DNA of 13,415 bases from a virus (lineage: Duplodnaviria > Heunggongvirae > Uroviricota > Caudoviricetes). The notes beneath the pieces are model-generated. The model made no database searches and was not told the origin of the DNA. It saw only the letters and a list, made by a program, of their open reading frames with translations. The DNA is taken from positions 1-13,415 of the IMG/VR virus record IMGVR_UViG_2654587746_000003; one strand, given 5' to 3'. Both the position numbers and the translations under genes were made by a program. How positions within the stretch are numbered: the first letter of the stretch is position 1; every line of letters begins with the position of its first letter. Shown here one piece after another: positions 1 through 13,415 of the stretch.

Positions 1-290
1 GTGTTGCATTGACAGATTGAATCTACAGTAGCCTTTTTTAATATTTCATTTTCCATTTCAATACGTTGTAGCTTTTTCCTGAGCTCACGGATTTCAATTT
101 GTTCCGGGGTAATGGGGGAGGCTTTTGGTGTTTTTCCCTGCCGCTCATCACGTAATTGTTTCACCCATCGCGTCATTGTGGAAAGGCCGACATCCATAGC
201 GCTGGCTGCATCTGCCACGGTGTAATTCTGGTCAACGACCAGTTGAGCGGATTCGCGTTTAAACTCTGCGCTGAAATTTCTTTTTTTCAT
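1..290 (-). CDS. IS3-family transposase OrfA (helix-turn-helix / leucine-zipper protein), partial; C-terminus lies outside window
   Basis: Reverse-strand translation from ATG (complement of 288-290) gives [88 protein letters not shown]..., which I recognise as the IS911/IS3-group OrfA N-terminus. Not in the ORF track because it runs off the window edge. Confidence 0.8.
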
Positions 291-362
291 TATGGCACCT
301 GTGTTGTTCTGAGGTGAGCATATCACCTCTGTTCAGGTGGCCAAATTCAGTAAACCACTTCA
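1..362 (-). mobile_element. IS3-family (IS911-like) insertion sequence, terminal part only; element continues beyond window start
   Basis: Minus-strand orfA starts at 290. Upstream of it the element ends at 355-362 (CCACTTCA on + strand, i.e. 5'-TGAAGTGG on the IS strand), the TG...CA terminus typical of IS3-family inverted repeats. Exact boundary is +/- a few bp from memory of the IS911 end. Confidence 0.75.
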
Positions 363-676
363 GAGGGAAACGTTCAAAAGCAACCGCCGGGAAAATGAAG
401 GCTGAAGGGCAGAAAAAAGGTTATCCGGACATGAGTCTCGATAAAGCATGCGGTATTTATCACGGCATGCGAATTGAGCTTAAAGAACCAAATGGTAAAG
501 CCCCGACGAAAGAGCAGATCGCCTGGATGCGCAGGCTTAGAGAGGAAGGTTACTACGTCGTTCTTGCGTATGGTGCAGAACAAGCGATAACCGCCATCCT
601 GGAATACATAAGCCTTAAAAAGGGTGAGGCTATTGAGCATGTATTGAACGGCGACAAGTGGTTGTATGCTGCTTAA
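363..676 (+). CDS. VRR-NUC domain nuclease (PD-(D/E)xK fold), apparently 5'-truncated by the IS insertion; possibly a pseudogene
   Basis: Frame continuous with ORF 314..676, but 314-362 is IS terminal repeat, so the GTG at 314 is not a real start. The remaining protein has GYPDM...IELK (PD-ExK core) and a conserved VRR-NUC C-terminal half (PTKEQIAWMRRLREEGYYVVLAYGAEQAI). The usual ~30-40 aa N-terminal segment is missing. First in-frame ATG is 395, with a weak RBS. Confidence 0.6.
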
Positions 677-732
677 AATAATAAATTAATTAGTGCATAT
701 GTGCTCTTTGATATAGCGCACATTAACATCGG

Positions 733-898
733 GAGAATAATCGTGTCATTCAAGGCTAATTATGAATCGCTGGCATCGATCATGCCGCGTAATGAACAGG
801 AAGCAGATGCTGTAGTGGACCCGGTAATCGCTGAAATGAATGCTCGCCTGGAGGCTGAATTTGCAGCTGAGAATGAACATACCACCCAGGGCGACTAG
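733..898 (+). CDS. hypothetical small acidic protein (54 aa)
   Basis: GTG at 733 preceded by GGGAGA (721-726). Frame is that of ORF 701..898. No recognisable domain. Overlaps the next gene by about 26 nt. Confidence 0.3.
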
Positions 899-1502
899 GA
901 CTGTTTTTTGTGTCGGTAGCGGTCCGTCACTCACTCGTGAGGACTGTGCTGCTATAGAAAAAACTGGCTGTTCAATCATCGCGGTTAACAATTCCTGGCA
1001 GATGTTCGATGACATTTATGCCTTATACGCCGGTGATTTGTCATGGTGGAAGCAATACGGATCCACCATACCGGGAGGGAGATTCCGCAAAGTGACAGCC
1101 AACCTGGCGGCGGCGAAATCATTTTCGTTGGAGTACAGGCGATATTGTGGACCGGCGGAAGGGGTAAATAGCGGCGCGCAGGCTATCAGTCTGGCTGCTG
1201 AATCAGGGGCTGAAGTAGTGGTATTAGTCGGCTATGACTGTTCTCTGCAAAACGGCCTTCATTGGCATGGCGCGCACCCTCAAGCCCTACGGAATCCAAC
1301 GCAGGTGTCTATTTCAAAATGGCAACAGCAGTTCCTGGATACCCGCAAAAAACACGCAGATTTACATATTTTGAATGCAAGTAGGAGCAGTGCAATTCAA
1401 TGTTTCCCAAGAATAAATTTAGAGGCAGTGATCGCGTTATTATCGTCGGCAGTGGCCCAAGCGCCGCAAACTTTGTTGCGCCGCGCGGAGTGCCGATTAT
1501 AG
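873..1502 (+). CDS. DUF115 / GT42 (CstII-, Maf-like) Rossmann-fold protein, putative glycosyl- or nucleotidyl-transferase, paralog A
   Basis: N-terminal VFCVGSGPSL (GxGPS loop), IIAVNNSW, then VNSGAQAISLAAESGAEVVVLVGYD. This matches the motif order of CstII-type sialyltransferases and DUF115 proteins (IAGNGPSL ... ITSGVYMCAVAIALGY..YLSGID). Start taken at ATG 873 (MNIPP...); ATG 840 is the alternative. Confidence 0.55.
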   Translation: MNIPPRATRTVFCVGSGPSLTREDCAAIEKTGCSIIAVNNSWQMFDDIYALYAGDLSWWKQYGSTIPGGRFRKVTANLAAAKSFSLEYRRYCGPAEGVNSGAQAISLAAESGAEVVVLVGYDCSLQNGLHWHGAHPQALRNPTQVSISKWQQQFLDTRKKHADLHILNASRSSAIQCFPRINLEAVIALLSSAVAQAPQTLLRRAECRL

Positions 1503-2026
1503 CGGTCAATGGGGCCATCGACTGGCTTAACCGCGCTTCTTATTTTTTCACCCTTGATCCATCGCCAGACAATATGCGGCGCGTTGGTCGTGGCCGCCGT
1601 CGCCGTGGTGTTTGTTATTGCATGGCGCTACCCGATGTTAAAGAACGTGAGGTCAGAGACGGCGTTCTGTGCTTCCGTCGTGTGGCTGAGCGCGGCACGG
1701 AGCCAAAAAATACGAATTCTCCCGAGTGGTGGGCGTGGCGCTGGTCCGCACATTTCGGCCTTTGCGAAGATGAGAATGAAATTGCCAGCGGCAATAGTGC
1801 ATATGGTGCTCTGAACCTGGCTTTCCATATCGGATTCAAACATGTAGCCCTGGTGGGCGTTGACGCTACGCAAGAACCACGCGTTCATTCCGGCGGCACG
1901 CCAAAAAATCTAAGTCACCTGCCTTTGTTATTCCAGTCTGCGCGTGAACAGATTGACGTTGTTTCATGCGGGAAAATGGGAGGTATTCCGCAGATGACTC
2001 TTAAAGAATGGCTGAAGAATACATGA
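1400..2026 (+). CDS. DUF115 / GT42-like Rossmann-fold protein, paralog B
   Basis: [25 protein letters not shown], and [24 protein letters not shown] give the same motif order as paralog A. AGGAG at 1383-1387. Overlaps paralog A by 103 nt out of frame. Stop TGA 2024-2026 overlaps the start of the next gene. Confidence 0.6.
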
Positions 2027-2700
2027 TGGCACCCACAATTTATCACCGTATCGACGGTACCAAATACAGGAATGTCTGGGTTGTTGGTGATCTGCATGGT
2101 TGCTACACCAGACTGATGTCCGAACTCCATCGTGTGGATTTTGACCCGGCGCAGGATTTACTGATATCGGTCGGCGACCTTATCGATCGCGGTACTGAAA
2201 ATGTCGAATGTCTGGAACTATTGCAGATGCCCTGGTTCAGGGCAGTGATGGGGAACCATGAGCGGCTGATGATTGATGCGTTAAGTCCAGATGGCAACGT
2301 GAATAACTGGCTAATGAATGGCGGACAATGGTTCTTCATGCTGGACACTGATCAGGAAATATTAGCCTGGGCGCTGGTGGAGCTGGTAAAGCGTCTGCCC
2401 TATATCATTGAGTTGAACACCGGGCAAGAAACTATCGTTATAGCCCATGCCGACTATCCGGATAATGAATACCAATTCGGTAAGGAGGTACCGCTTTTCA
2501 ACGTTGTCTGGGCGCGCGAGCGTATCAGTGATTCGATGGATGATATTGGTGGCGAAATTTCGGGCGCAGATCGTTTTATCTTTGGTCACACTCCGGTGAA
2601 AAGCCCGAAGACATTCTGGAATCAGCAGTATATCGACACTGGTGCCGTATTTTGCGGAAACCTGACATTGATGAAAGTGAAAGGTGATGGTGCAGCATGA
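2023..2700 (+). CDS. Ser/Thr protein phosphatase, calcineurin-like metallophosphoesterase (lambda PPase / PrpA-PrpB family)
   Basis: Motifs GDLHG, GDLIDRG and GNHE in the canonical order. N-terminus [22 protein letters not shown] aligns with lambda phosphatase as I remember it. Start ATG 2023 or 2026 (ATGATG overlapping the upstream stop). P1 also encodes a phosphatase (ppp), but I cannot confirm orthology. Confidence 0.85.
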
Positions 2701-3398
2701 AGATTGCTTTAGTTTTTCGCTCTGGTGGTGACTATAACGCTTCCGATGTGCAGTGGCTGGTTAATCAACTGCCAAAAGGCTATGAAATTATTTGCCTGAC
2801 AGACCTGAAGCGTTTACATGTACCTGGCGTCAAAGTTGTCCCATTGATCAACCAGTGGCAAAAGTGCCGTGGCTGGTGGGCGAAAATCGAGTTGTTCCGA
2901 CCGGATATAACCGATGATCTGTTCTATCTGGATTTGGACACGGTTATTGCCGGTGATATACGCCCAATCCTAGAGCATCCACCAACCAGCTTCACCATGC
3001 TTAGGGATTTTTACCATCCACAATATCGTGGCAGCGGTGCCCTGTGGATACCAAATAGTGTTAAAGCGCATATCTGGAGTTCATTCTGGCAAGATCCGGA
3101 AGGTTGGATTTCTCGTTGTGTCACTACTGAGTGCTGGGGTGACCAGGGGTTCTTACGAAAGGTTATGGGCGATGATACACCAGCATTTCAGGATCTGTAT
3201 CCAGGATGGTTTGTAAGTTACAAGGCCGATGTTGTGGAACCTGGTTCAAAATATGCGAGCGCGCGTTACTCCAGGGGGAATGGGGCATTACCAAAAGACT
3301 GCCGAATAATCTTTTTCCACGGCAAACCGCGACCTCGCGAAGTGTCAGAGGATTGGCTTCCCCTTATCAGCTCATTTTTTGAGCGAGAATCAGAATAA
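2697..3398 (+). CDS. GT8-like (GT-A fold, DxD) glycosyltransferase, putative
   Basis: ATGA overlap with the phosphatase stop. [29 protein letters not shown] resembles the GT8 signature (K..L...L.....YLDxDxxV.GDI). Later DQGFL and FFHGKPRP resemble the GT8 DQD..N and H.G..KPW motifs. Motif-level only. Confidence 0.5.
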
Positions 3399-3399
3399 T

Positions 3400-3416
3400 A
3401 TTGCTCTAATAATTCC
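3400..3416 (+). promoter_or_regulatory. P1 C1-repressor operator-like site overlapping a sigma70-like promoter
   Basis: ATTGCTCTAATAATTCC matches the remembered C1 operator consensus ATTGCTCTAATAAATTT at 14/17. TTGCTC (3401-3406), 17-bp spacer, TAAAAC (3424-3429) gives promoter-like spacing. Confidence 0.55.
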
Positions 3417-3447
3417 ATATTTTTAAAACGTGATGTACACTCATCAC

Positions 3448-3464
3448 ATTTTTTATTAGAGCAA
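3448..3464 (-). promoter_or_regulatory. second C1-operator-like site, inverted orientation
   Basis: Reverse complement of 3448-3464 is ATTGCTCTAATAAAAAA (14/17 to consensus). Forms a 13-bp inverted repeat with the 3400 site. Lies between the putative start site and the RBS (AAGGTG, 3470-3475) of the 3480 gene. Confidence 0.5.
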
Positions 3465-3479
3465 TCTACAAGGTGCACT

Positions 3480-3698
3480 ATGTGGCCATTCCGACGGAAA
3501 TATCACTACTGGCTGATCGCCTTTGTTACGCCGACCGGCGGTATCAGGCATGTAATCACCAGGTATCGCAACAAGAGACTCACCTTAGCCAGAATTTTAC
3601 AGGCTGCCATAGGTGAGGGACTGGATACAAATCGCGTAGTCCTTCCACCTTCATACTTAGGAAAAATGACCGAAGCACAAGCTAATACGGAACTTTGA
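3480..3698 (+). CDS. hypothetical protein (72 aa)
   Basis: ATG 3480 with AAGGTG RBS. Stop TGA 3696-3698 is 1 nt from ATG 3700 of the next gene (coupling). No recognisable domain. Confidence 0.45.
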   Translation: MWPFRRKYHYWLIAFVTPTGGIRHVITRYRNKRLTLARILQAAIGEGLDTNRVVLPPSYLGKMTEAQANTEL

Positions 3699-3699
3699 A

Positions 3700-4962
3700 A
3701 TGAGCACTTCAGCACAAAACCAATCAATCGAAAATGTATCTATCCCTGACGTCCTGAATGCCGGTATCCCAGCCATTATCCAGAACATCCGGGCCGCGCA
3801 ACGCCGCGTTAGTTGTGATGACCTCACAGCGCGTTTTTTTGATAATGCGGTTCAGTCAGCGGAGATGCTTCACGCACAGCTTATTGATGTTTATAACGCA
3901 GAAGCTGATAGCCATAACTCCCTGGTAGATGCAGCTGAAAATATGCAGTTGGATCTCGGTCTGAAGGGTAAAGAAATTGAAGAGCTTCAGCTACAAATTG
4001 AACATTTGAAACGCCAGCAACAGGACGCGATCGACGATGCGACGCATGACGCCAACCAGCGTGCTGATAATGCCGAACGTATAAGCATTGAGCTGGAAAC
4101 AAAACTCAATGAAATGACCGCGATGGTTGAACTGCGGAACTCACAGATTTCAACGCTAAAATCTCAATATAAAGAGATCATGAAACTTGATCCTTTTAAC
4201 CTTGAGAAACGCTATAACAAAGCTAAAAGCGAGCGACAGGAACTGCGTAAGCAGGTCGCCGACCTTAACCAACAGCTCAAAAAAACTATTAAAGATGCAA
4301 GCGAAGCGCGCGTGGCATTTGCTAATAAAAAAGCAGAGGTTACCGCGCTGGTTAATGAGAATGCCAAATTTGCGACGCTCAAGAAGGAAATGTATGGCAT
4401 TACTGAGCGCCGTTTCCCTGCAAGCAAACTTCATCCGACGTTAGGGCAAATCTCCTTCTTCCCGCGCCTCCTGGCTTATGGGATCTCATCGCCTAAAGAG
4501 TTCAATAACGAGCGTCCTTATATCGTTTCTAAGCTGGACTTTGCTTATCAGTTCTGCTGCGACATGGGCTATGCCATTGATATCCGAATCAACGAATGGT
4601 TGATGCCAAACTTCCAGCCGTTGGCAATTTTCCGCGAGTTCCAGCCGGAAGGTTGGGTAGAGTTCTTCCATGAATTGATCTGTAAAGAGATGGAAAGCCG
4701 CCGCCCGGAATTGGTCCGTCGAGTTGAGTGGGCGCAAGAGGTTATGTTGGCAGATGCAGAGCTGCCGTTCGAACCGGAATTCATTGATGATCTGGCAACT
4801 AAAGGGTTGCATACCCTGTTTGATGTGGTTACCCGCCGTCATGAGCAGTTGGTTGTCGAATTGGGTTTAGAGGAAACTGCGGCAAGAAGACTTCTCGATG
4901 TTTGCTATGCACGTAGCGAGGCATGGGAAAAAGAGAACGGCGGCACTATTTACGTTCGCTGA
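3700..4962 (+). CDS. hypothetical protein (420 aa): N-terminal ~230-aa predicted coiled coil, C-terminal globular domain of unknown function
   Basis: Long ORF. N-terminal half is heptad-like and charged (ELQLQIEHLKRQQQDAIDD...RQELRKQVADLNQQLKK). C-terminal half is aromatic and Cys-containing (ERPYIVSKLDFAYQFCCDMGYAIDIRINEW...). No motif I can assign. Confidence 0.7.
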   Translation: MSTSAQNQSIENVSIPDVLNAGIPAIIQNIRAAQRRVSCDDLTARFFDNAVQSAEMLHAQLIDVYNAEADSHNSLVDAAENMQLDLGLKGKEIEELQLQIEHLKRQQQDAIDDATHDANQRADNAERISIELETKLNEMTAMVELRNSQISTLKSQYKEIMKLDPFNLEKRYNKAKSERQELRKQVADLNQQLKKTIKDASEARVAFANKKAEVTALVNENAKFATLKKEMYGITERRFPASKLHPTLGQISFFPRLLAYGISSPKEFNNERPYIVSKLDFAYQFCCDMGYAIDIRINEWLMPNFQPLAIFREFQPEGWVEFFHELICKEMESRRPELVRRVEWAQEVMLADAELPFEPEFIDDLATKGLHTLFDVVTRRHEQLVVELGLEETAARRLLDVCYARSEAWEKENGGTIYVR

Positions 4963-4981
4963 TAGTTACAGTGTCACTTTT

Positions 4982-5017
4982 AATGCTGGTGGAGTGCTCC
5001 CACCAGCATTTTTTTCG
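4982..5017 (+). terminator. rho-independent terminator
   Basis: AATGCTGGTGGAG (4982-4994), short loop, CTCCCACCAGCATT (4997-5010), then TTTTTTT (5010-5016); 20 nt after the 420-aa stop. Confidence 0.8.
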
Positions 5018-5034
5018 TCCAATGAGGAGGGCAT

Positions 5035-5541
5035 TTGAGTATTTTCAATAAACACGCACACCAGGAACGTCCGTACATCGTCATAGTAGATATTGATGGG
5101 ACGATATCAGAGGCAACGGAAGACAGGCTGCATTTACTTCCACCACCTGGCAAAGGTGCATTAACAGAGCACTGGAACGAGTTTAACCTTGCCTGTGACA
5201 CTGATGCTCCCATCACTCCAGTTATTGATATGGTGCGCCAGTTGTCCGGCATTTACACCCTCTGGTTTGTAACCGGGCGCTGTGAGATAGCCAGGGATAA
5301 AACACGAGCCTGGTTGCGTAAGCACGTAACAAATGGGGCTGAGCCTTTGCTATCTATGCGTCCTGCCACCGATGACAGAAATGACGGTCCAGCAAAGATT
5401 GATCTCCTGAAGAAAATTGGTCTAAGTAAAATTGCGTTCGCGCTGGAAGATAAGATTGAAGTGGCGCGTGTTTTCAGGAGTCACGGCGTACTTACGTTAA
5501 TGGTCAGGGAGTATGAAAACGCGCTTCTCCATCAACAATAA
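5035..5541 (+). CDS. HAD-superfamily phosphatase (DxDGT motif I), nucleotidase / polynucleotide 3'-phosphatase-like
   Basis: TTG 5035 preceded by GAGGAGG (5024-5030). IVIVDIDGTIS is HAD motif I; a later WFVTGR is motif II-like. Exact start uncertain. Confidence 0.65.
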   Translation: MSIFNKHAHQERPYIVIVDIDGTISEATEDRLHLLPPPGKGALTEHWNEFNLACDTDAPITPVIDMVRQLSGIYTLWFVTGRCEIARDKTRAWLRKHVTNGAEPLLSMRPATDDRNDGPAKIDLLKKIGLSKIAFALEDKIEVARVFRSHGVLTLMVREYENALLHQQ

Positions 5542-5571
5542 TTACTCTAATAAATCTTGATTTTTAAAACA
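5541..5571 (+). promoter_or_regulatory. C1-operator-like site plus promoter-like -35/-10
   Basis: ATTACTCTAATAAATCT (5541-5557) is 15/17 to the C1 consensus. TTACTC, 17-bp spacer, TAAAAC (5565-5570) has the same architecture as the 3400 element, including the shared ATTTTTAAAAC. Confidence 0.5.
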
Positions 5572-5639
5572 GAGAAAATGAAAATAAAAACATGCCGCAA
5601 GGCGCGGCATGTATCCAATCAATCTCAGGAGCTGAAAAT

Positions 5640-5726
5640 ATGAACACGGCATTCAAAATCATTATGGCCGCGATCTATTTCTGGCTGTTCTCTATCACTT
5701 TTGGCAGCATTGTCGCGCATGGGTAA
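5640..5726 (+). CDS. small hydrophobic peptide (28 aa, one predicted transmembrane helix), not in ORF track
   Basis: AGGAG (5627-5631), 8-nt spacer, ATG 5640. Translation MNTAFKIIMAAIYFWLFSITFGSIVAHG, stop TAA 5724-5726. Confidence 0.45.
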   Translation: MNTAFKIIMAAIYFWLFSITFGSIVAHG

Positions 5727-5805
5727 GGGGAGTATATTAGCCATTTGGAACCCCACGGTCTCTTGCGGGTTTAATTAAGAACCCGCAAGAAAAATACGAA
5801 TTGGG

Positions 5806-8800
5806 CTATATTTTTCCGCCTACGCCTTTAAACTTCTCAATAAACGAGACGATTTTCTGGAAAACTGCCTGTTTTTTCGTTTTATATTGCGGATTCAACG
5901 GACTAAGTTTTGGTAATGTTTCGTTTAATTCTGTGCCATTTTCGGTGGCGTATTCGCGTTTTAAAGACATGCGAATATAGCGTTTTGCTGCATCTTCATT
6001 GAGATTTTCTTCTTTTATCAATGCTTCTGCTTCACGTTGCTGTTCGCGTTGAGCAAACGTAAAGAATGCCTCAATGATACTGGCTTTGTCTGGTAAATCA
6101 TCCAGGTTCGTTTGCTGAATAAAATCGACCACCAGGCCCTCTTTCGCCCGGTTCCCCAGGCTTGAACGAATTAAGCGTTTGACCTCTTCGATCATTTCGC
6201 CCTTGCCTTTATTTTGTCTGTTGTGTTCGAAAATCAGTCCAAGGATATAATCCAGGTTTATTTCCTGAGACTTCAGCAAATCGACCTCAAAAACTACGTC
6301 ATCCCAGTCAGTGGTTGATTTCTCTTTTTTCTCAGCTTCTTTCTCACGGCGCTGCCAGTCGCGAATATCGTTATAGGCAGAACGATAATCCTGAATCTTG
6401 CGATCAGCAGGGAGACGAATTGTTTGCAATTCAGCGAACTTTTCATTATCCACATAATGTTCTGCTTTGAATTTTTCTACCGCAACAGGATCGCTAAGAT
6501 CGATTTGTTGCAGGGCTTTTAGCGTGGCAAATTCATCATAGTTTTGCAGGATGTTCTCGGCACGCAGGTATTCGCCAAACAGTTTAACGAAGTCTTTCTT
6601 CTCTTTTTCACTTTCAATACTGGTAGGGTCAGGGAACCGTTGTTCCAGTTCTGAAACTACTGTCATGAAGCCGCGTTTAGCTTCACCAGTGGCAGCATCA
6701 GTAAAGCCTTCCATATACTCTGCATAACTCTTTTCTAAAACCACATTTTTGGTATTTTTGTCACCAAACAGCGTTATGGCATCAATGGTTGAGCGTTCCA
6801 GATCCCGGAACGTGACAATATTACCGAAGGTTTTAGTCGCGTCATAAATGCGGTTGGTGCGGGAGAATGCCTGCATCAGGCCGTGAAAACGCAAGTTTTT
6901 ATCGACGAATAGCGTGTTTAATGTTGGAGCATCGAAGCCGGTTAAAAACATCCCCACGACAATTAGCAGATCGATATCCTGATTTTTAACCCGCTGGGCT
7001 AAATCACGATAGTAGTTCTGAAAACCGTTACTGTCGGTGCTAAAGTTAGTTTTAAAATGGCTGTTATATTCACGAATTGCAGCGTCCAGAAACTCTTTAG
7101 CACTGCTGTCCATTGCGCTGGTATCAAAAGTTTCATCGGAAATTTCACCAATGGCATTTTGTTCTTCATTGGCGGCAAAGGAGAAGATTGTCGCAATACG
7201 CAGCGGTTTATAGGTAGCCGATTTATTAGCGGCTTCCTCTTGTAACCGTTTAAACGTCGCGTAATAGGCTTTCGCGGCATCCACGCTGCTCACTGCCAGC
7301 ATGGCATTAAAACCTTTGGAGCCAGGGAAAGTACGGTGGGTTTTCTGGCGGAAGTTATTCAGGATATATTGCGTAATTTCCTGAATACGCATGGGATGAA
7401 GGAACGCCTGCTGATTTTCAGCCGCACTCAGTTTTTTCTCGTCGGTTTCTGTCTCTAAAGACTTAAATTGTGGCCGCACATCGTTATAGTCCACCTTGAA
7501 TTTGAGCACTTTTTCATCACGAATCGCATCGGTAATCACATACGAATGCAATTCACGACCAAATACGCTGGCGGTCGTTTCTGAGCCTAAAGCGTTTTCC
7601 GGGAAAATAGGTGTGCCGGTAAAACCAAACTGATAATAGCGTTTGAATTTCTTCTTCAGGTTTTTCTGCGCTTCTCCAAACTGGCTGCGGTGGCATTCAT
7701 CAAATATAAACACCACTTGCTGATTGTATACAGGCAGATCGCTTTCTGCTTTCATCAGGTTATTGAGTTTCTGAATAGTAGTGACGATAATTTTGTTATC
7801 GTCCTTATCCAGATTTCGTTTAAGACCTGCGGTATTTTCCGAGCCGTTGACGCTGTCTGGCGAAAAACGCTGATATTCCTTCATGGTCTGGTAATCGAGG
7901 TCTTTCCTGTCGACCACAAAGAAGACTTTATCAATAAAGTCCAGCTCTGTTGCCAGACGCGCGGCTTTAAAGCTGGTGAGGGTTTTACCAGAACCGGTAG
8001 TGTGCCAGATATACCCACCGCTTTCCGGTTTTGACCAGTTCTTCGCTGTAAAGGAACTCTTAATTTTCCACAGAATGCGCTCGGTGGCGGCAATCTGGTA
8101 CGGTCGCATTACCAGTAGTGTCTGACTGCTGTCAAAAACGCTGTAGTTCACCAGAACATTAAGCAGAGTATGTTTCTGGAAAAAGGTAGCGGTAAAGTCT
8201 TTGAGGTCTTTAATCAGCGTGTTGTCTGATTTAGCCCAGTTCATGGTGAAGTCAAAACTGTTTTTATCGCGCTTTGTGGTGTTGGCAAAATAACGGGTAT
8301 CAGTGCCGTTGGAAATGACGAACAGCTGCAGATACTTAAACAGGGAATTTTCGCTGTTAAAACTCTCTTTACTGTAACGATGTATCTGGTTGAAAGCCTC
8401 ACGAATCGCCACCCCGCGTTTTTTTAGTTCGATTTGCACCAGCGGTAAACCATTAACCAGGATCGTGACGTCATAACGGTTAGCATGAGAACCCGTCTGT
8501 TCAAACTGCTGGATAATCTGCACCTTATTGCGCATGAGATTCTTTTTATCTATCAAATAGATGTTCTCAAGACGCTCGTCATCAAAAATAAAGTCGCAAA
8601 TATAGTCGATATGGATTTTACGGGTCTTATCCAGAATGCCATCGCTCGGGTTATCCAGATACTGCTCCGTGAAACGCCGCCACTCGCTGTCATTAAACAC
8701 CACACCATTGAGGTTCTGAAGCTGTTCCCGAACATTGGCTAGCATCGCCGACTGTGATTTTACGGATATAAATTCATAGCCCTGATTCCGCAGGTCCTGA

Positions 8801-8922
8801 ATCAGTTCACGTTCCAGGTCCGATTCGCTCTGATAGCTGTCGCCTGTTTGCTCAGCTTTGATGTACTTATCAAGAACGATAAAGTTATTGGATTCAGCAA
8901 TGGTGTGTGTCTGATGAGTCAT
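5806..8922 (-). CDS. hsdR: Type I restriction enzyme R subunit (HsdR), Type IC family size (1038 aa)
   Basis: Walker A GSGKT, DEAD-box-like FDECH, helicase motifs ([12 protein letters not shown]). The 1038-aa length and the partner genes match the EcoR124/EcoprrI (IC) family. RBS AAGGA upstream of ATG. Confidence 0.93.
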
Positions 8923-9043
8923 AGCGCATCCTTTGTGCCGTCTGGCAAGGGCCGGAAGGGAGTTAAGGGCGACTTCCAGCGCGTAAAAAATAGTCTATAT
9001 ACTGACCGGGTGTTAAGGTGGCCCGGTCGGTAGCAATGGTCAA

Positions 9044-10245
<1,202 letters not shown>

Positions 10246-10249
<4 letters not shown>

Positions 10250-11808
10250 GATTGCGCCTTGTCACCTTCAATCTTTGCCACAATTGCATCAATATCTTTA
10301 CGCAACTGGTCGATTTTGCTGACCGTGGTTTTCAGCTCAGCATTCAGCTCAGCAATATCGATAATTTCGCGGTTATCTTTCGCTTCCACATAGCTGCTCA
10401 CCGACAGGTTATAGTCATTAGCAACAACGGCCTCAAACGCGACAGATTTCGCCAGATGAGCAACATTTTCTTTGCTGGCAAATACCTGCATAATCTGGTT
10501 GATATGGGCATCGGTCAGGATATTGTTGTTAGTCTCTTTTTTGAACAGTTCGCTGGCGTCAATAAACTGAACTTTGGTATCCGTTTTATGTTTAGACAGC
10601 ACCAGAATATTTACGGCAATGGTGGTGCCAAAGAACAGGTTCGGTGCGAGTGAAATCACGGTTTCGACATAGTTATTGTCGACCAGATACTGACGGATTT
10701 TCTGCTCTGCGCCGCCACGGTAAAAAATACCCGGGAAGCAGACAATCGCAGCACGACCTTTGGCCGAAAGATAGTTCAGCGCATGTAGTACAAACGCAAA
10801 GTCAGCTTTGGATTTGGGGGCCAGAACGCCAGCCGGGGCAAAACGTTCATCGTTAATCAGCGTCGGGTCATCGCTGCCAATCCATTTCACCGAATACGGT
10901 GGATTAGATACGATGGCGTCAAACGGTTTTTCATCTCTGAAGTGCGGCTCAGTCAGTGTATTACCCAGCTTGATATCAAACTTGTCGTAGTTGATATTGT
11001 GCAAAAACATGTTCATACGCGCCAGGTTATAGGTCGTATGGTTGATTTCCTGACCGAAAAAGCCTTCTTCGATGATGTGGTTATCAAACTGTTTTTTCGC
11101 CTGCAACAACAGTGAGCCGGAACCCGCTGCCGGGTCGTAGATTTTGTTAACGCTGGTCTGCCCGTGCATAGCCAGTTGTGCAATCAGCTTGGAGACGTGC
11201 TGCGGTGTAAAGAACTCACCGCCTGACTTACCGGCATTTGCGGCATAGTTAGAAATCAGGAACTCATAGGCATCACCGAACAGGTCAATCTGATGTTCGT
11301 TGAAGTCACCAAGTTTTAACCCTTCAACCCCTTTCAGAACCGCTGCCAGGCGGGCATTTTTATCTTTAACGGTGTTACCCAGGCGGTTACTGGTGGTATC
11401 GAAATCAGCAAACAAACCTTTGATGTCAGCTTCTGAAGGGTAACCGTAAGCAGAACTTTCGATAGCAACGAAGATGCTGTTTAAATCTGCATTCAGTCTG
11501 TCATTGGTCTTTGCTTTCGCAGCTACGTTGCAGAAAAGCTGGCTTGGGTAGATGAAGTAGCCTTTGGTTTTGATGGCATCGTCTTTAATGTCATCAGTAA
11601 TTACGCTGTCATCCAGTTTCGCATAACAGATACTGTCATCACCGGCTTCAATATAGCTGGAAAAATTTTCGCTGATAAAACGGTAGAAAAGTGCGCCCAG
11701 AACGTATTGCTTAAAATCCCATCCATCGACCGAACCTCTGACATCGTTGGCAATTTGCCAGATTTGACGATGAAGCTCTGCACGTTGTTGAATACTTGTC
11801 ATTTTCAT
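10246..11808 (-). CDS. hsdM: Type I DNA methyltransferase M subunit (HsdM), N6-adenine, 520 aa
   Basis: AdoMet motif [11 protein letters not shown] and catalytic motif IV NPPY. Length fits Type IC HsdM. A possible promoter -10 TAGAAT (complement of 11843-11848) lies upstream. Confidence 0.93.
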
Positions 11809-11939
11809 CCACTTATTTCAGGCTTATGTAATTGGCGGTGATTCTACAGCAACTTGGATGCTTTAGCAGTTCGGACATTAGGCTACGAATGACCTGCCTA
11901 GAGGTTTGTTAAGCCGCAAAGTGCTGGTGCTTTATGCCT

Positions 11940-11984
11940 GTGAAGTTTATAATTGTGTACACATAACGAGTACACGAGGTGTTT
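11940..11984 (+). promoter_or_regulatory. phd-doc promoter/operator region
   Basis: TATAAT at 11948-11953, followed by palindromic GTGTACAC (11955-11962) and GAGTACAC (11968-11975), consistent with the Phd/Doc autoregulatory operator of P1. RBS GAGGTG before ATG 11985. Confidence 0.55.
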
Positions 11985-12206
11985 ATGCAATCCATTAACT
12001 TCCGTACCGCGCGTGGCAACCTTTCTGAAGTGCTCAACAATGTTGAAGCCGGGGAAGAGGTTGAAATCACCCGCAGAGGCCGTGAGCCAGCAGTAATTGT
12101 CAGCAAGGCTACTTTCGAAGCCTACAAAAAAGCGGCGCTGGATGCTGAATTTGCATCCCTGTTTGACACCCTGGACTCCACCAACAAGGAACTGGTTAAC
12201 CGATAA
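11985..12206 (+). CDS. phd: antitoxin Phd (prevent host death), Phd/YefM family
   Basis: [73 protein letters not shown], recognised as P1 Phd. Stop TAA shares its last A with the doc ATG (TAATG). Confidence 0.92.
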
Positions 12207-12586
12207 TGAGGCATATATCACCGGAAGAACTTATTGCGCTTCATGATGCGAATATAAACCGCTACGGCGGCCTGCCGGGCATGTCAGATCCGGGTAGGGC
12301 AGAGGCCATTATCGGGAGAGTTCAGGCCAGAGTTGCCTACGAAGAGATCACCGACCTTTTCGAAGTCTCCGCCACCTACCTGGTGGCTACAGCGAGAGGG
12401 CATATATTCAATGATGCCAATAAGCGTACCGCGCTAAACAGTGCGCTGTTATTTCTACGCCGTAACGGGGTGCAGGTATTTGATTCACCTGAACTGGCAG
12501 ACCTTACCGTAGGAGCTGCGACCGGAGAGATATCTGTATCTTCTGTCGCCGACACGTTACGTAGATTGTATGGTTCTGCGGAGTAG
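12206..12586 (+). CDS. doc: toxin Doc (death on curing), Fic/Doc-family kinase
   Basis: 126 aa, [22 protein letters not shown]...[11 protein letters not shown] (Fic/Doc core motif). Position and overlap with phd as in P1. Confidence 0.92.
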
Positions 12587-12590
12587 ATTA

Positions 12591-12770
12591 ATGGCACGTA
12601 AATACAACAAATTGTCCCGTGAAGCGTTAAAGATGCTTCTTGATGGTGTGAGCCGCAGCGAGGTAAAGCAATACCTGGTTGGTAAGCAAATTGGTGCCAG
12701 GACCGCTATTGCTGTGTTATGCCGTCAGGAAATGGTTGTGCTTAAACAGAGAATGCCGGGCAGCAGATAA
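12591..12770 (+). CDS. small basic protein (59 aa) in the position of P1 pdcB (post-doc)
   Basis: ATG 12591 with GGAG 8 nt upstream, immediately after doc. Identity inferred from synteny only. Confidence 0.45.
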   Translation: MARKYNKLSREALKMLLDGVSRSEVKQYLVGKQIGARTAIAVLCRQEMVVLKQRMPGSR

Positions 12771-12797
12771 AGCCCAATCAGTGATGAAAGGTGTGAT

Positions 12798-13331
12798 GTG
12801 AAAGCCGTAATTACTCCCTTTGTACAAAAAGAGCTTGGCGTCGCCACATTCAAAGTGGATCAGGAAGTCAGAAAGCTGGTGGAGGCTGGCCGTAAATTTA
12901 TTATGGAGCCGGTGCCGCGTGAGTTAATCGAGCACATGGACGACGGCCTCGTTGTTTCCGAGCAAACTATGGCAACAAATGAGGCGTTGCAGCCGTTTTT
13001 TAACAGCGATGAACTGTTTCGCCGTATTGGTGGAATTGACGCGCTGGTGGCGTGGTTGCGCAGGAAAGAGGGGCAATGCCAGGCCGCAGATCGTAGCTGG
13101 TGTGACAACCATATTGTCCACGCAGAACGAGACAATAGCGCGGTGTTGTTGTGCTGGCATCACGATAACCATTACCGGATGCGTGGTTTTAATGAGCTGA
13201 AAGAAACGCTGCATAATAATCGCGTTAACTGGATACTGGATGTCGCCCGTCAGGAAATGGGGCTTTCAGATGGCCATGATCTAAGGAAGGTGCGAATAAG
13301 CAGGTCATTTCTTCCCAAGTTGACTCGCTGA
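12798..13331 (+). CDS. Cys/His-rich protein (177 aa) in the position of P1 lpa (late promoter activator); putative zinc-binding regulator
   Basis: GTG 12798 with AAAGG RBS. Contains CDNHIVHAE...LLCWHHDNH. Assignment is by gene order phd-doc-pdcB-lpa, not sequence recall. Confidence 0.5.
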
Positions 13332-13382
13332 TTAAAATTTCGCGGATCTGGGCCGATTTTTTTCCCGCAAACACATCGAATC

Positions 13383-13405
13383 AGCCTATTTAGGCTATTT
13401 TTTCC
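13383..13405 (+). terminator. weak hairpin plus T-tract, possible terminator
   Basis: AGCCTA-TT-TAGGCT followed by ATTTTTT. Stem is short, so low confidence. Confidence 0.25.
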
Positions 13406-13415
13406 ACCATTTCTG

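Follow-up and report, generated by a model that had tools for sequence, protein, structure and literature searches.

Type IC systems and the variable site of P1

The families of type I restriction-modification systems are defined via sequence, complementation and antibody cross-reaction, and the TAEL repeat is known as the determinant of spacer length in type IC S subunits (PMC3874165). The type IC prototype is the EcoR124I/EcoR124II pair of plasmids R124 and R124/3, with the gene order hsdM-hsdS-hsdR and two TAEL repeats in the S chain deposited in the PDB. Another type IC system, EcoDXXI, with the target TCA(N7)RTTC, lies on a conjugative plasmid with P1 DNA on either side (Tyndall et al. 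1997); the title of that study, on the hsd-P1 arrangement, is cited in a passage of PMC12707154 as evidence linking restriction systems to mobile elements. In the GenBank notes of P1, the EcoDXXI hsd flanks are recorded as homologous to P1 84263-84482 (downstream) and 87969-88647 (upstream, phd-doc), and the R124/3 flank, 3′ of hsdR, to P1 84399-84482. EcoprrI (prrA-D) is likewise type IC with the same basic gene order, but has prrC between hsdS and hsdR. In P1-like phage-plasmids, the stretch from pmgT to humD is named 'variable region 8' in the passages of PMC9603915 that deal with it, and these passages contain no occurrence of 'hsd'.

The stretch of DNA analyzed here (the window, 13,415 nucleotides) carries hsd genes at this site. 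Judged from the sequence, they very probably form a functional EcoR124-family (type IC) operon, which would be one of two alternative cassettes at the known variable P1 site running from the pap side to phd, and no result contradicted the identification as an EcoR124-family cassette. The arrangement is already known and ordinary. The same gene set, hsdR-hsdS-hsdM between pap and phd, was found in the deposited P1-like phages phi456 (OR339795; 95% of the window at 98.0% identity) and vB_EcoM-673R5 (ON470615; 90% of the window at 96.9% identity). In the collections of phages, plasmids and E. coli genomes, even the best records reach only ~98% identity to the window, which is ~2% diverged from all of them.

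The hsd cassette and its specificity subunit

Three intact ORFs were obtained on the minus strand in the order hsdM-hsdS-hsdR, as in EcoR124I/EcoR124II: hsdM (10246..11808), encoding an N6-adenine methyltransferase subunit of 520 aa; hsdS (9044..10249), encoding a specificity subunit of 401 aa and overlapping hsdM by 4 bp; and hsdR (5806..8922), encoding a restriction/translocase subunit of 1038 aa. PADLOC type I models for methyltransferase, specificity (Specificity_I) and restriction were matched. HsdR matched TIGR00348 (770 bits) and aligned over its full length with EcoR124I HsdR (2w00; 2292 bits), with ~8 differences within the first ~1010 residues, while HsdM matched TIGR00497 (648 bits) and, likewise over its full length, EcoR124 HsdM (7bst_D; 1138 bits), with ~10 differences in 519 residues; the identities to EcoR124I/II are ~99% for HsdR and ~98% for HsdM. 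The motifs TGSGKT, DECH and D...ELK (nuclease) in HsdR, and DPAAGSG and NPPY in HsdM, were read from the alignments. Gene order, HsdM and HsdR sequences, HsdS regions and catalytic motifs are all those of type IC (EcoR124 family), and the complete type IC hsd cassette of the preliminary description is thereby confirmed.

The 121-bp gap between hsdS and hsdR (8923..9043, minus strand) contains no ORF and no prrC-like gene, and an embedded anticodon nuclease of the prrC type, as in the EcoprrI locus, was rejected, there being no room for one. The gap holds a candidate hsdR promoter, TTAACA-18-TATTTT at 9016..8987 (minus strand), a match to the consensus only, and a non-P1 leader without P1 homology, 5′ of hsdM (11809..11908, minus strand), presumably carries the hsdM-hsdS promoter. 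The hsd promoters count as inferred only, because promoter-like matches did not exceed the level of shuffled sequences (12 sites in the sigma-70 scan against 11.7 expected, no enrichment). At the other end of the cassette, a perfect stem-loop of 11-13 bp lies 16 nt past the hsdR stop (5761..5790; fold −25.4 kcal/mol, z = −3.9 on both strands) and has no U-tract on either strand. The Rfam search of the entire window gave no match.

A decaying relic without function is a very unlikely reading of the cassette. Related loci do show damage: the hsdS of phi456 is interrupted by an insertion of ~1.2 kb, and the record of vB_EcoM-673R5 shows hsdR and hsdM split into fragments, together with an hsdS allele that differs from that of the window. 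In the window, however, hsdS is uninterrupted, all ORFs are full length with intact catalytic motifs, and HsdR and HsdM share 98-99% identity with the EcoR124 subunits, which are active and have been crystallised.

The specificity subunit is organized as N-conserved region, TRD1, central conserved region, TRD2 and C-conserved region. Its conserved regions are identical or nearly identical to those of EcoR124 HsdS and the alignment is limited to them, whereas both recognition domains differ; the target of the window system is therefore probably not GAA(N6/7)RTCG. Because every HsdS homologue has a generic name, none offered a characterised specificity for the subunit. Three tandem 12-nt repeats (9656..9691, minus strand), found by the repeat scan and in alignments, encode TAEL three times at aa 187-198, one repeat more than in the EcoR124 S chain and the same number as in EcoDXXI, whose spacer is N7. 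The subunit equals the 397-aa P0001 exactly, save for one added TAEL, and the exact HsdS sequence was not found in a collection of 15 billion proteins. This S-subunit sequence is previously unrecorded and is the sole new detail of the case. One pair of recognition domains is in circulation with either two TAEL repeats or three, which parallels in nature the spacer switch of EcoR124I/II; pCFS3292-3 is a relative with two.

What is established here is that the genes are intact and to which family they belong; the enzymology that follows is what is generally known of type I enzymes. HsdM and HsdS would be produced together and, with AdoMet, would form an M2S1 methyltransferase methylating a single adenine per half of a bipartite target, which would be set by the two recognition domains, both unlike those of EcoR124I. 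Joined by HsdR, the enzyme would become an R2M2S1 pentamer that translocates and cuts DNA with unmethylated targets, and such cutting would protect both host and plasmid against incoming phage and plasmid DNA.

Replacement at gene borders within P1 DNA

Collinear, high-identity P1 genes were located on either side of the hsd block. The left arm (363..5730, plus strand) is collinear with P1 79115-84482 at 98.4% identity and contains pmgM′ (3′ part), pmgN, pmgO, pmgP, ppp, pmgQ, pmgR, pmgS, pap (5035-5541) and the pap-pmgT intergenic region. The right arm (11909..~13284, plus strand) starts at the humD stop codon, is collinear with P1 87970-89346 at 97.6% identity and contains Pphd (about 11925-11953, at the same position as the annotated P1 Pphd), phd (11985-12206; phd_fam, TIGR01552 above cut-off), doc (12206-12586; DOC_P1, TIGR01550 above cut-off), pdcA (12570-12770) and pdcB′ (12798-13284), with the Phd and Doc family proteins encoded in operon order behind Pphd. 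The minus-strand hsd genes are divergent from plus-strand phd-doc and the modules stand back to back, as had been described. The accompanying distance of ~175 bp is correct as hsdM ATG to phd ATG (176 bp) and not as the distance to the promoter, the −35 of Pphd lying at ~11925, 117 bp from hsdM.

Several elements are preserved in the pap-pmgT intergenic region. The C1 repressor operator OpmgT (Op88; 5541..5557, plus strand), its position transferred from the P1 annotation, is conserved in sequence apart from a single G-to-A substitution in the window, and predicted PpmgT promoters just 3′ of it (about 5542-5585, plus strand) face the 3′ end of hsdR here, instead of pmgT. The terminator scan revealed a hairpin with a U-tract resembling an intrinsic terminator for leftward transcripts (5590..5612, minus strand; fold −18.7 kcal/mol, z = −4.05), located within the P1-homologous arm 194 nt 3′ of the hsdR stop and conserved in both P1 and the relatives that bear hsd. 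An unannotated hydrophobic ORF of 28 codons with a Shine-Dalgarno sequence (MNTAFKIIMAAIYFWLFSITFGSIVAHG; 5641..5727, plus strand), read from the sequence, is conserved in P1 and five relatives.

Between 5730 and 11909, P1 homology is absent from the alignment. The non-P1 block (5731..11908, minus strand; 6,178 bp) comprises the hsd cassette and the 3′ and 5′ flanks that belong to it, and occupies the place of ~3.49 kb in P1, nine genes from pmgT to humD, that is, the variable region 8 block. The hsd genes had been proposed to take the place of hot-lxr-humD; the block in fact stands in for a longer stretch than these genes. The left junction lies 3 nt past the stop of the 28-codon ORF and the right junction at the humD stop codon; the boundaries, as called for, were defined by P1 alignment at 5731 and 11908. 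The left junction is identical in 5/5 aligned hsd-bearing relatives, and the limits given in the P1 GenBank notes coincide with the window junctions within 1 bp: R124/3 matches P1 up to 84482, and EcoDXXI shares the pair of junctions, phd-doc being the neighbour in both EcoDXXI and the window. No direct or inverted repeats linking 5700-5810 with 11850-11950 were detected in the repeat scan, in answer to the flanking repeats that had been considered, and no transposase, terminal inverted repeats or target-site duplication were found at the block borders. One cassette cleanly replaces another here at the borders of genes; this is not an insertion. Transposition, or carriage as transposon- or IS-borne cargo, was rejected because the borders have neither flanking repeats nor a transposase.

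The hsd genes had been described by eye as AT-rich, and this proved correct in part. The GC content of the block is 43.7%, compared with 47.8% and 49.2% in the P1 arms, and each of the three hsd genes is lower in GC than any of the 11 genes of the P1 arms (exact Mann-Whitney p = 0.0027). However, the difference is modest: GC3 of hsdR (0.485) and hsdM (0.514) lies inside the range of P1 genes (0.46-0.55), and the RSCU of hsdR/hsdM correlates with that of the P1 arms (r = 0.75-0.81), while arm against arm gives r = 0.50. Only the two recognition domains of hsdS are strongly AT-rich, with GC3 of 0.295 and 0.236. The dip in GC is genuine yet small, and its sources are the hsdS recognition domains and amino-acid composition. 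Composition is not uniform, but hsdR and hsdM stay within the P1 pattern of codon usage, and strong compositional foreignness of these two genes was rejected.

These results bear on the reading of the preliminary description as cargo acquisition, taken here as the recent capture of a foreign hsd operon by this element through insertion beside phd. The reference P1, which had been named as a check, has no hsd genes at the site, the block GC stands 4-5 points under the arms, and the recognition domains have very low GC3, all of which speaks for such a capture. Nevertheless, ~3.5 kb was replaced and nothing was inserted, the borders carry no repeats or mobility genes, the codon usage of hsdR and hsdM is indistinguishable from that of P1 genes, and the junctions are common to hundreds of replicons (one of them in 701/5,426 genomes) and to loci sequenced in the 1990s and are already noted in the P1 annotation. 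A fresh acquisition is largely refuted and extremely improbable. The SNP pattern is patchy, consistent with frequent recombination, and we infer that the cassette would spread by homologous recombination in the P1 arms, or by taking P1 fragments along into other plasmids, rather than by transposition, because the junctions lie at gene borders and are shared with many replicons.

P1 context and linkage to phd-doc

The P1 segment ends at an insertion sequence on each side. On the left, the end of an IS3-family (IS911-like) element (1..362, minus strand, reading leftward) truncates pmgM at P1 position 79115; over positions 28-362, the identity to copies of IS911/IS3-family elements in phage records is 93-99.7%, and the 3′ DNA of pmgM, and with it P1 homology, starts at 363, directly after the IS end. 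On the right, an IS5-family (ISKpn26-like) end with its terminal inverted repeat (GGAAGGTGCGAATAAG...; 13285..13415) is inserted in pdcB after CTAA (13281-13284), truncating the gene, and gave 98-99% matches to IS5-family ends beside IS5/ISKpn26 transposase genes in two records (L003, L004). In the species-representative genomes, an exact 46-mer spanning the pdcB/IS5 junction had no match, and a junction 37-mer matched the one E. coli representative only.

The P1-like backbone that had been proposed stands as far as the flanks are 97.6-98.4% identical to P1, but it is cut by an IS at both ends of the window and may be a P1 remnant. A reading in which the segment is no live P1-like phage-plasmid but lies within a bigger plasmid, perhaps a conjugative or mobilizable one, with hsd-phd-doc kept as a defence-plus-stability module, has a slightly better than even chance, and it concerns the context, not the identity of the cassette. 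The left IS/pmgM junction (window 1-500, zero mismatches) recurs in pMS14386-2, an IncFIB-typed mobilizable plasmid of 123 kb in which the DNA past the IS is non-P1, and the same junction occurs in other plasmids of 127-202 kb, while records without that IS measure ~92-100 kb. P1-derived plasmids retaining phd/doc have also been reported (PMC10879196), in agreement with this reading. However, the visible DNA amounts to 13.4 kb only, and an IS in pmgM or pdcB need not kill the phage; phi456, deposited as a phage, also has IS1 copies near these genes.

The distribution of the junctions was analyzed in 5,426 complete E. coli genomes. The right junction hsdM|phd was present in 701, about one in eight, and the canonical humD|phd in 470, so that hsd is the more common of the two alleles at the P1 site in sequenced E. 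coli. The left junction between the pap side and hsdR was present in 224 genomes, against 285 for the canonical left junction. Linkage of hsd to phd-doc is thus far more frequent than linkage to the left P1 arm (701 vs 224), which also favors the remnant.

Two readings would give the neighbourhood of the EcoR124-family operon a function of its own, and together they are unlikely, although slightly less so than a relic. In one, loss of C1 on prophage induction could drive PpmgT antisense into hsdR and lower restriction; the sole structure counted between PpmgT and the 3′ end of hsdR is a hairpin without a U-tract. If true, restriction would fall as unmodified phage DNA replicates, and a type I system would be coupled to the lysis-lysogeny switch. 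In the milder version, selection would act on hsd-phd-doc as one unit, in which the toxin-antitoxin pair would provide the addiction that, to our knowledge, type I systems lack.

As one of two alternative cassettes at the P1 site, the EcoR124-family operon is a textbook example of a restriction system on phage-derived DNA, a known positive and not a discovery. phd-doc is the conserved neighbour of this variable site, and therefore stability and defence modules travel together.

The hsd cassette and its place in the P1 backbone

The region 5806–11808 was found to be filled by three long minus-strand ORFs, hsdR (8922..5806, 1038 aa), hsdS (10249..9044, 401 aa) and hsdM (11808..10246, 520 aa), with a 4-bp overlap between hsdM and hsdS and a gap of 121 bp between hsdS and hsdR, which is too small for a prrC-like gene, so this candidate was excluded. 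The NCBIfam models TIGR00348 (771 bits) and TIGR00497 (648 bits) matched hsdR and hsdM, respectively, and PADLOC called the trio as a type I methyltransferase, specificity subunit and restriction enzyme. HsdR matched the EcoR124I HsdR (2w00) end to end (2292 bits, ~8 substitutions within the first ~1010 residues) and contains the motifs TGSGKT, DECH and D...ELK; HsdM matched the EcoR124 M subunit (7bst_D, 1138 bits, ~10 substitutions in 519 residues) and contains the methyltransferase motifs DPAAGSG and NPPY. Judged from gene order, sequence family and S-subunit layout, the cassette is type IC, and all three genes are intact members of the EcoR124 family; the complete minus-strand cassette claimed in the preliminary description was thus upheld by the ORFs, NCBIfam, PADLOC and the EcoR124 structure matches together. 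It is also divergent, as had been described, to the addiction genes phd (11985–12206) and doc (12206–12586), both identified by family matches on the plus strand. The distance of about 175 bp given for the hsdM start and the phd promoter holds from ATG to ATG (176 bp), but the −35 of the annotated Pphd maps to ~11925, only 117 bp from hsdM.

The comparison with P1, by megablast against phage records and local BLAST against the P1 reference, revealed two collinear arms, with window 363–5730 corresponding to P1 79115–84482 (98.4% identity) and window 11909–13285 to P1 87970–89346 (97.6% identity) in the local BLAST, and the reference carries other genes between them. The 6,178-bp block between the arms (5731–11908) is a replacement of nine P1 genes and not an insertion beside hot-lxr-humD; the site first proposed was correct in lying upstream of phd, but more is displaced than the three genes named. 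The left junction lies 3 nt past the stop of a 28-codon ORF, just ahead of the pmgT ribosome-binding site, and the right junction coincides with the stop codon of humD. Flanking repeats, which were to be looked for at the insertion boundaries, were not found: neither direct nor inverted copies join the two borders of the block. The 28-codon ORF (5641–5727) has a Shine-Dalgarno sequence, encodes the conserved hydrophobic peptide MNTAFKIIMAAIYFWLFSITFGSIVAHG and carries no annotation in the reference P1, and the left junction follows its stop by 3 nt in every hsd-bearing relative aligned.

Base composition and the specificity subunit

The hsd genes had been described as more AT-rich than their flanks, and their total GC is indeed lower: the block has 43.7% GC versus 47.8% and 49.2% in the arms, the displaced P1 segment having 46.5%, and all three hsd genes fall below all eleven P1-arm genes (exact Mann–Whitney p = 0.0027). 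However, the codon usage of hsdR and hsdM resembles that of P1, with GC3 values (0.485 and 0.514) inside the P1 range and RSCU correlations with the P1 arms of r = 0.75–0.81, versus r = 0.50 between the arms themselves; the lower GC of these two genes results from the abundance of Lys, Asn, Ile, Phe and Tyr in their products. The deviation is confined to the hsdS recognition domains (aa 20–158 and 220–342), with GC3 of 0.295 and 0.236, while the conserved regions of hsdS are ordinary (0.44–0.53). Such a profile argues for modules exchanged out of a lower-GC pool and gives no support to a recently imported operon.

Only the N-terminal, central and C-terminal conserved regions of HsdS align with EcoR124 HsdS, and both target-recognition domains are unlike those of the latter. 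The central region harbors three TAEL repeats (9656–9691, aa 187–198), whereas P0001 (397 aa, encoded on plasmids like pCFS3292-3), its nearest match among database proteins, has two and is otherwise identical; no copy of the exact 401-aa HsdS was present in a collection of 15 billion proteins. The homologues P0022 and P0053 are other alleles, sharing only the first or the second recognition domain with the window HsdS. This pair of recognition domains occurred in only nine complete E. coli genomes, seven with the three-repeat form (1206-bp gene, on plasmids, 99.4–99.5% nucleotide identity) and two with the two-repeat form (1194-bp gene). In type IC systems, recognition domains reassort and the spacer shifts via unequal crossing-over at the central short repeat (PMC3874165), and the allele pattern matches this behavior; the two- and three-TAEL forms are a natural counterpart of the switch between EcoR124I, GAA(N6)RTCG, and EcoR124II, GAA(N7)RTCG.

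Expression, spread and replicon context

In established type I enzymology, M2S1 methylates both half-sites and R2M2S1 translocates along and cuts unmodified DNA, and restriction alleviation of EcoR124I is independent of ClpXP (PMC3874165). Transcription of hsdM-hsdS would start in the 100-bp non-P1 leader. A putative promoter in the hsdS–hsdR gap would serve hsdR, and EcoR124I has two promoters in such an arrangement. The hsdR transcripts would stop at a hairpin at 5761–5790 and/or at 5612–5590, where a second hairpin has the canonical look of a terminator for leftward transcription. This second hairpin belongs to the P1-homologous arm and occurs in P1 as well; the only gene annotated there on the strand served is lxr, ~2.5 kb rightward. 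It might be a hint that hsd has long occupied this site. Also kept, within 5541–5612, are the C1 operator OpmgT and the PpmgT promoters, which in this allele are convergent with the hsdR 3′ end. Mismatches to relatives are unevenly spread, with 0 to 40 in a 500-bp stretch according to the relative compared, a pattern that indicates a mosaic of recombination tracts and fits a cassette that would move by recombination within the P1 arms. No record closer than ~98% over the window was found in the phage, plasmid and complete E. coli genome collections.

Both ends of the window are insertion sequences. An IS3-family (IS911-like) element end in reverse orientation (1–362) cuts pmgM, with P1 homology beginning at 363 (P1 79115), and an IS5-family (ISKpn26-like) element end (13285–13415, terminal repeat GGAAGGTGCGAATAAG...) is inserted in pdcB after CTAA (13281–13284), leaving 162 P1-derived codons of ~347. 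The IS5/pdcB junction had no exact match in species-representative genomes. Plasmid pMS14386-2, which has non-P1 DNA on the far side of the IS, carries the left IS/pmgM junction too (0 mismatches over the first 500 bp), as do other plasmids of 127–202 kb; it is absent from P1-like plasmids of ~92–100 kb. Since the P1 segment is IS-bounded and its left junction recurs in these larger plasmids, the source of the window, seen from 13.4 kb alone, may be a hybrid plasmid with P1-derived parts instead of a live phage-plasmid.

Prior record and frequency of the allele

The P1 GenBank record already notes that 84263–84482 is 96% identical to DNA downstream of the EcoDXXI hsd locus, 84399–84482 is 98% identical to plasmid R124/3 DNA downstream of hsdR, and 87969–88647 (phd-doc) is 98% identical to conjugative-plasmid DNA upstream of the EcoDXXI hsd locus. 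The ends of these homologies coincide with the window junctions within 1 bp. A passage of PMC12707154 cites Tyndall et al. 1997, by its title a study of this arrangement, for restriction systems linked to mobile elements, and PMC9603915 counts pmgT to humD among eight regions that are highly variable between P1-like phage-plasmids. Two P1-like phages with deposited genomes, phi456 and vB_EcoM-673R5, also carry hsd between pap and phd, in a form that looks damaged. In phi456, hsdS carries an insertion of ~1.2 kb (12174–13370), and in vB_EcoM-673R5 (6527–12478) hsdR and hsdM are annotated in fragments, which may stem from true decay or from frameshifts in sequencing.

With 300-bp junction probes covered over at least 80% in 5,426 complete E. 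coli genomes, the right-hand hsdM/phd junction was detected in 701 genomes versus 470 for humD/phd of the P1 allele, and the left-hand pap-side/hsdR junction in 224 versus 285 for pap-side/pmgT, nearly all matches being plasmid-borne. The hsd allele is therefore the commoner right-hand state, and hsd keeps its link to phd-doc in far more genomes than its link to the left P1 arm. Coverage of at least 80% of 5560–12000 was seen in 617 PLSDB plasmids, and the 1,619 matching records comprise 966 non-mobilizable, 388 conjugative and 265 mobilizable plasmids. They range from the apparently complete P1-like pCFS3292-3 (99.8 kb) to larger plasmids with P1 fragments, such as pMS14386-2 (IncFIB-typed, 123 kb) and p13C1065T-3 (150 kb); P1-derived plasmids of this sort, with phd/doc kept, have been described (PMC10879196). 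Overall, the arrangement is an already known, long-documented and very common allele, and the cargo acquisition proposed earlier is right in so far as P1 DNA here bears an accessory defence cassette beside an addiction module, though not in implying a notable or recent gain.
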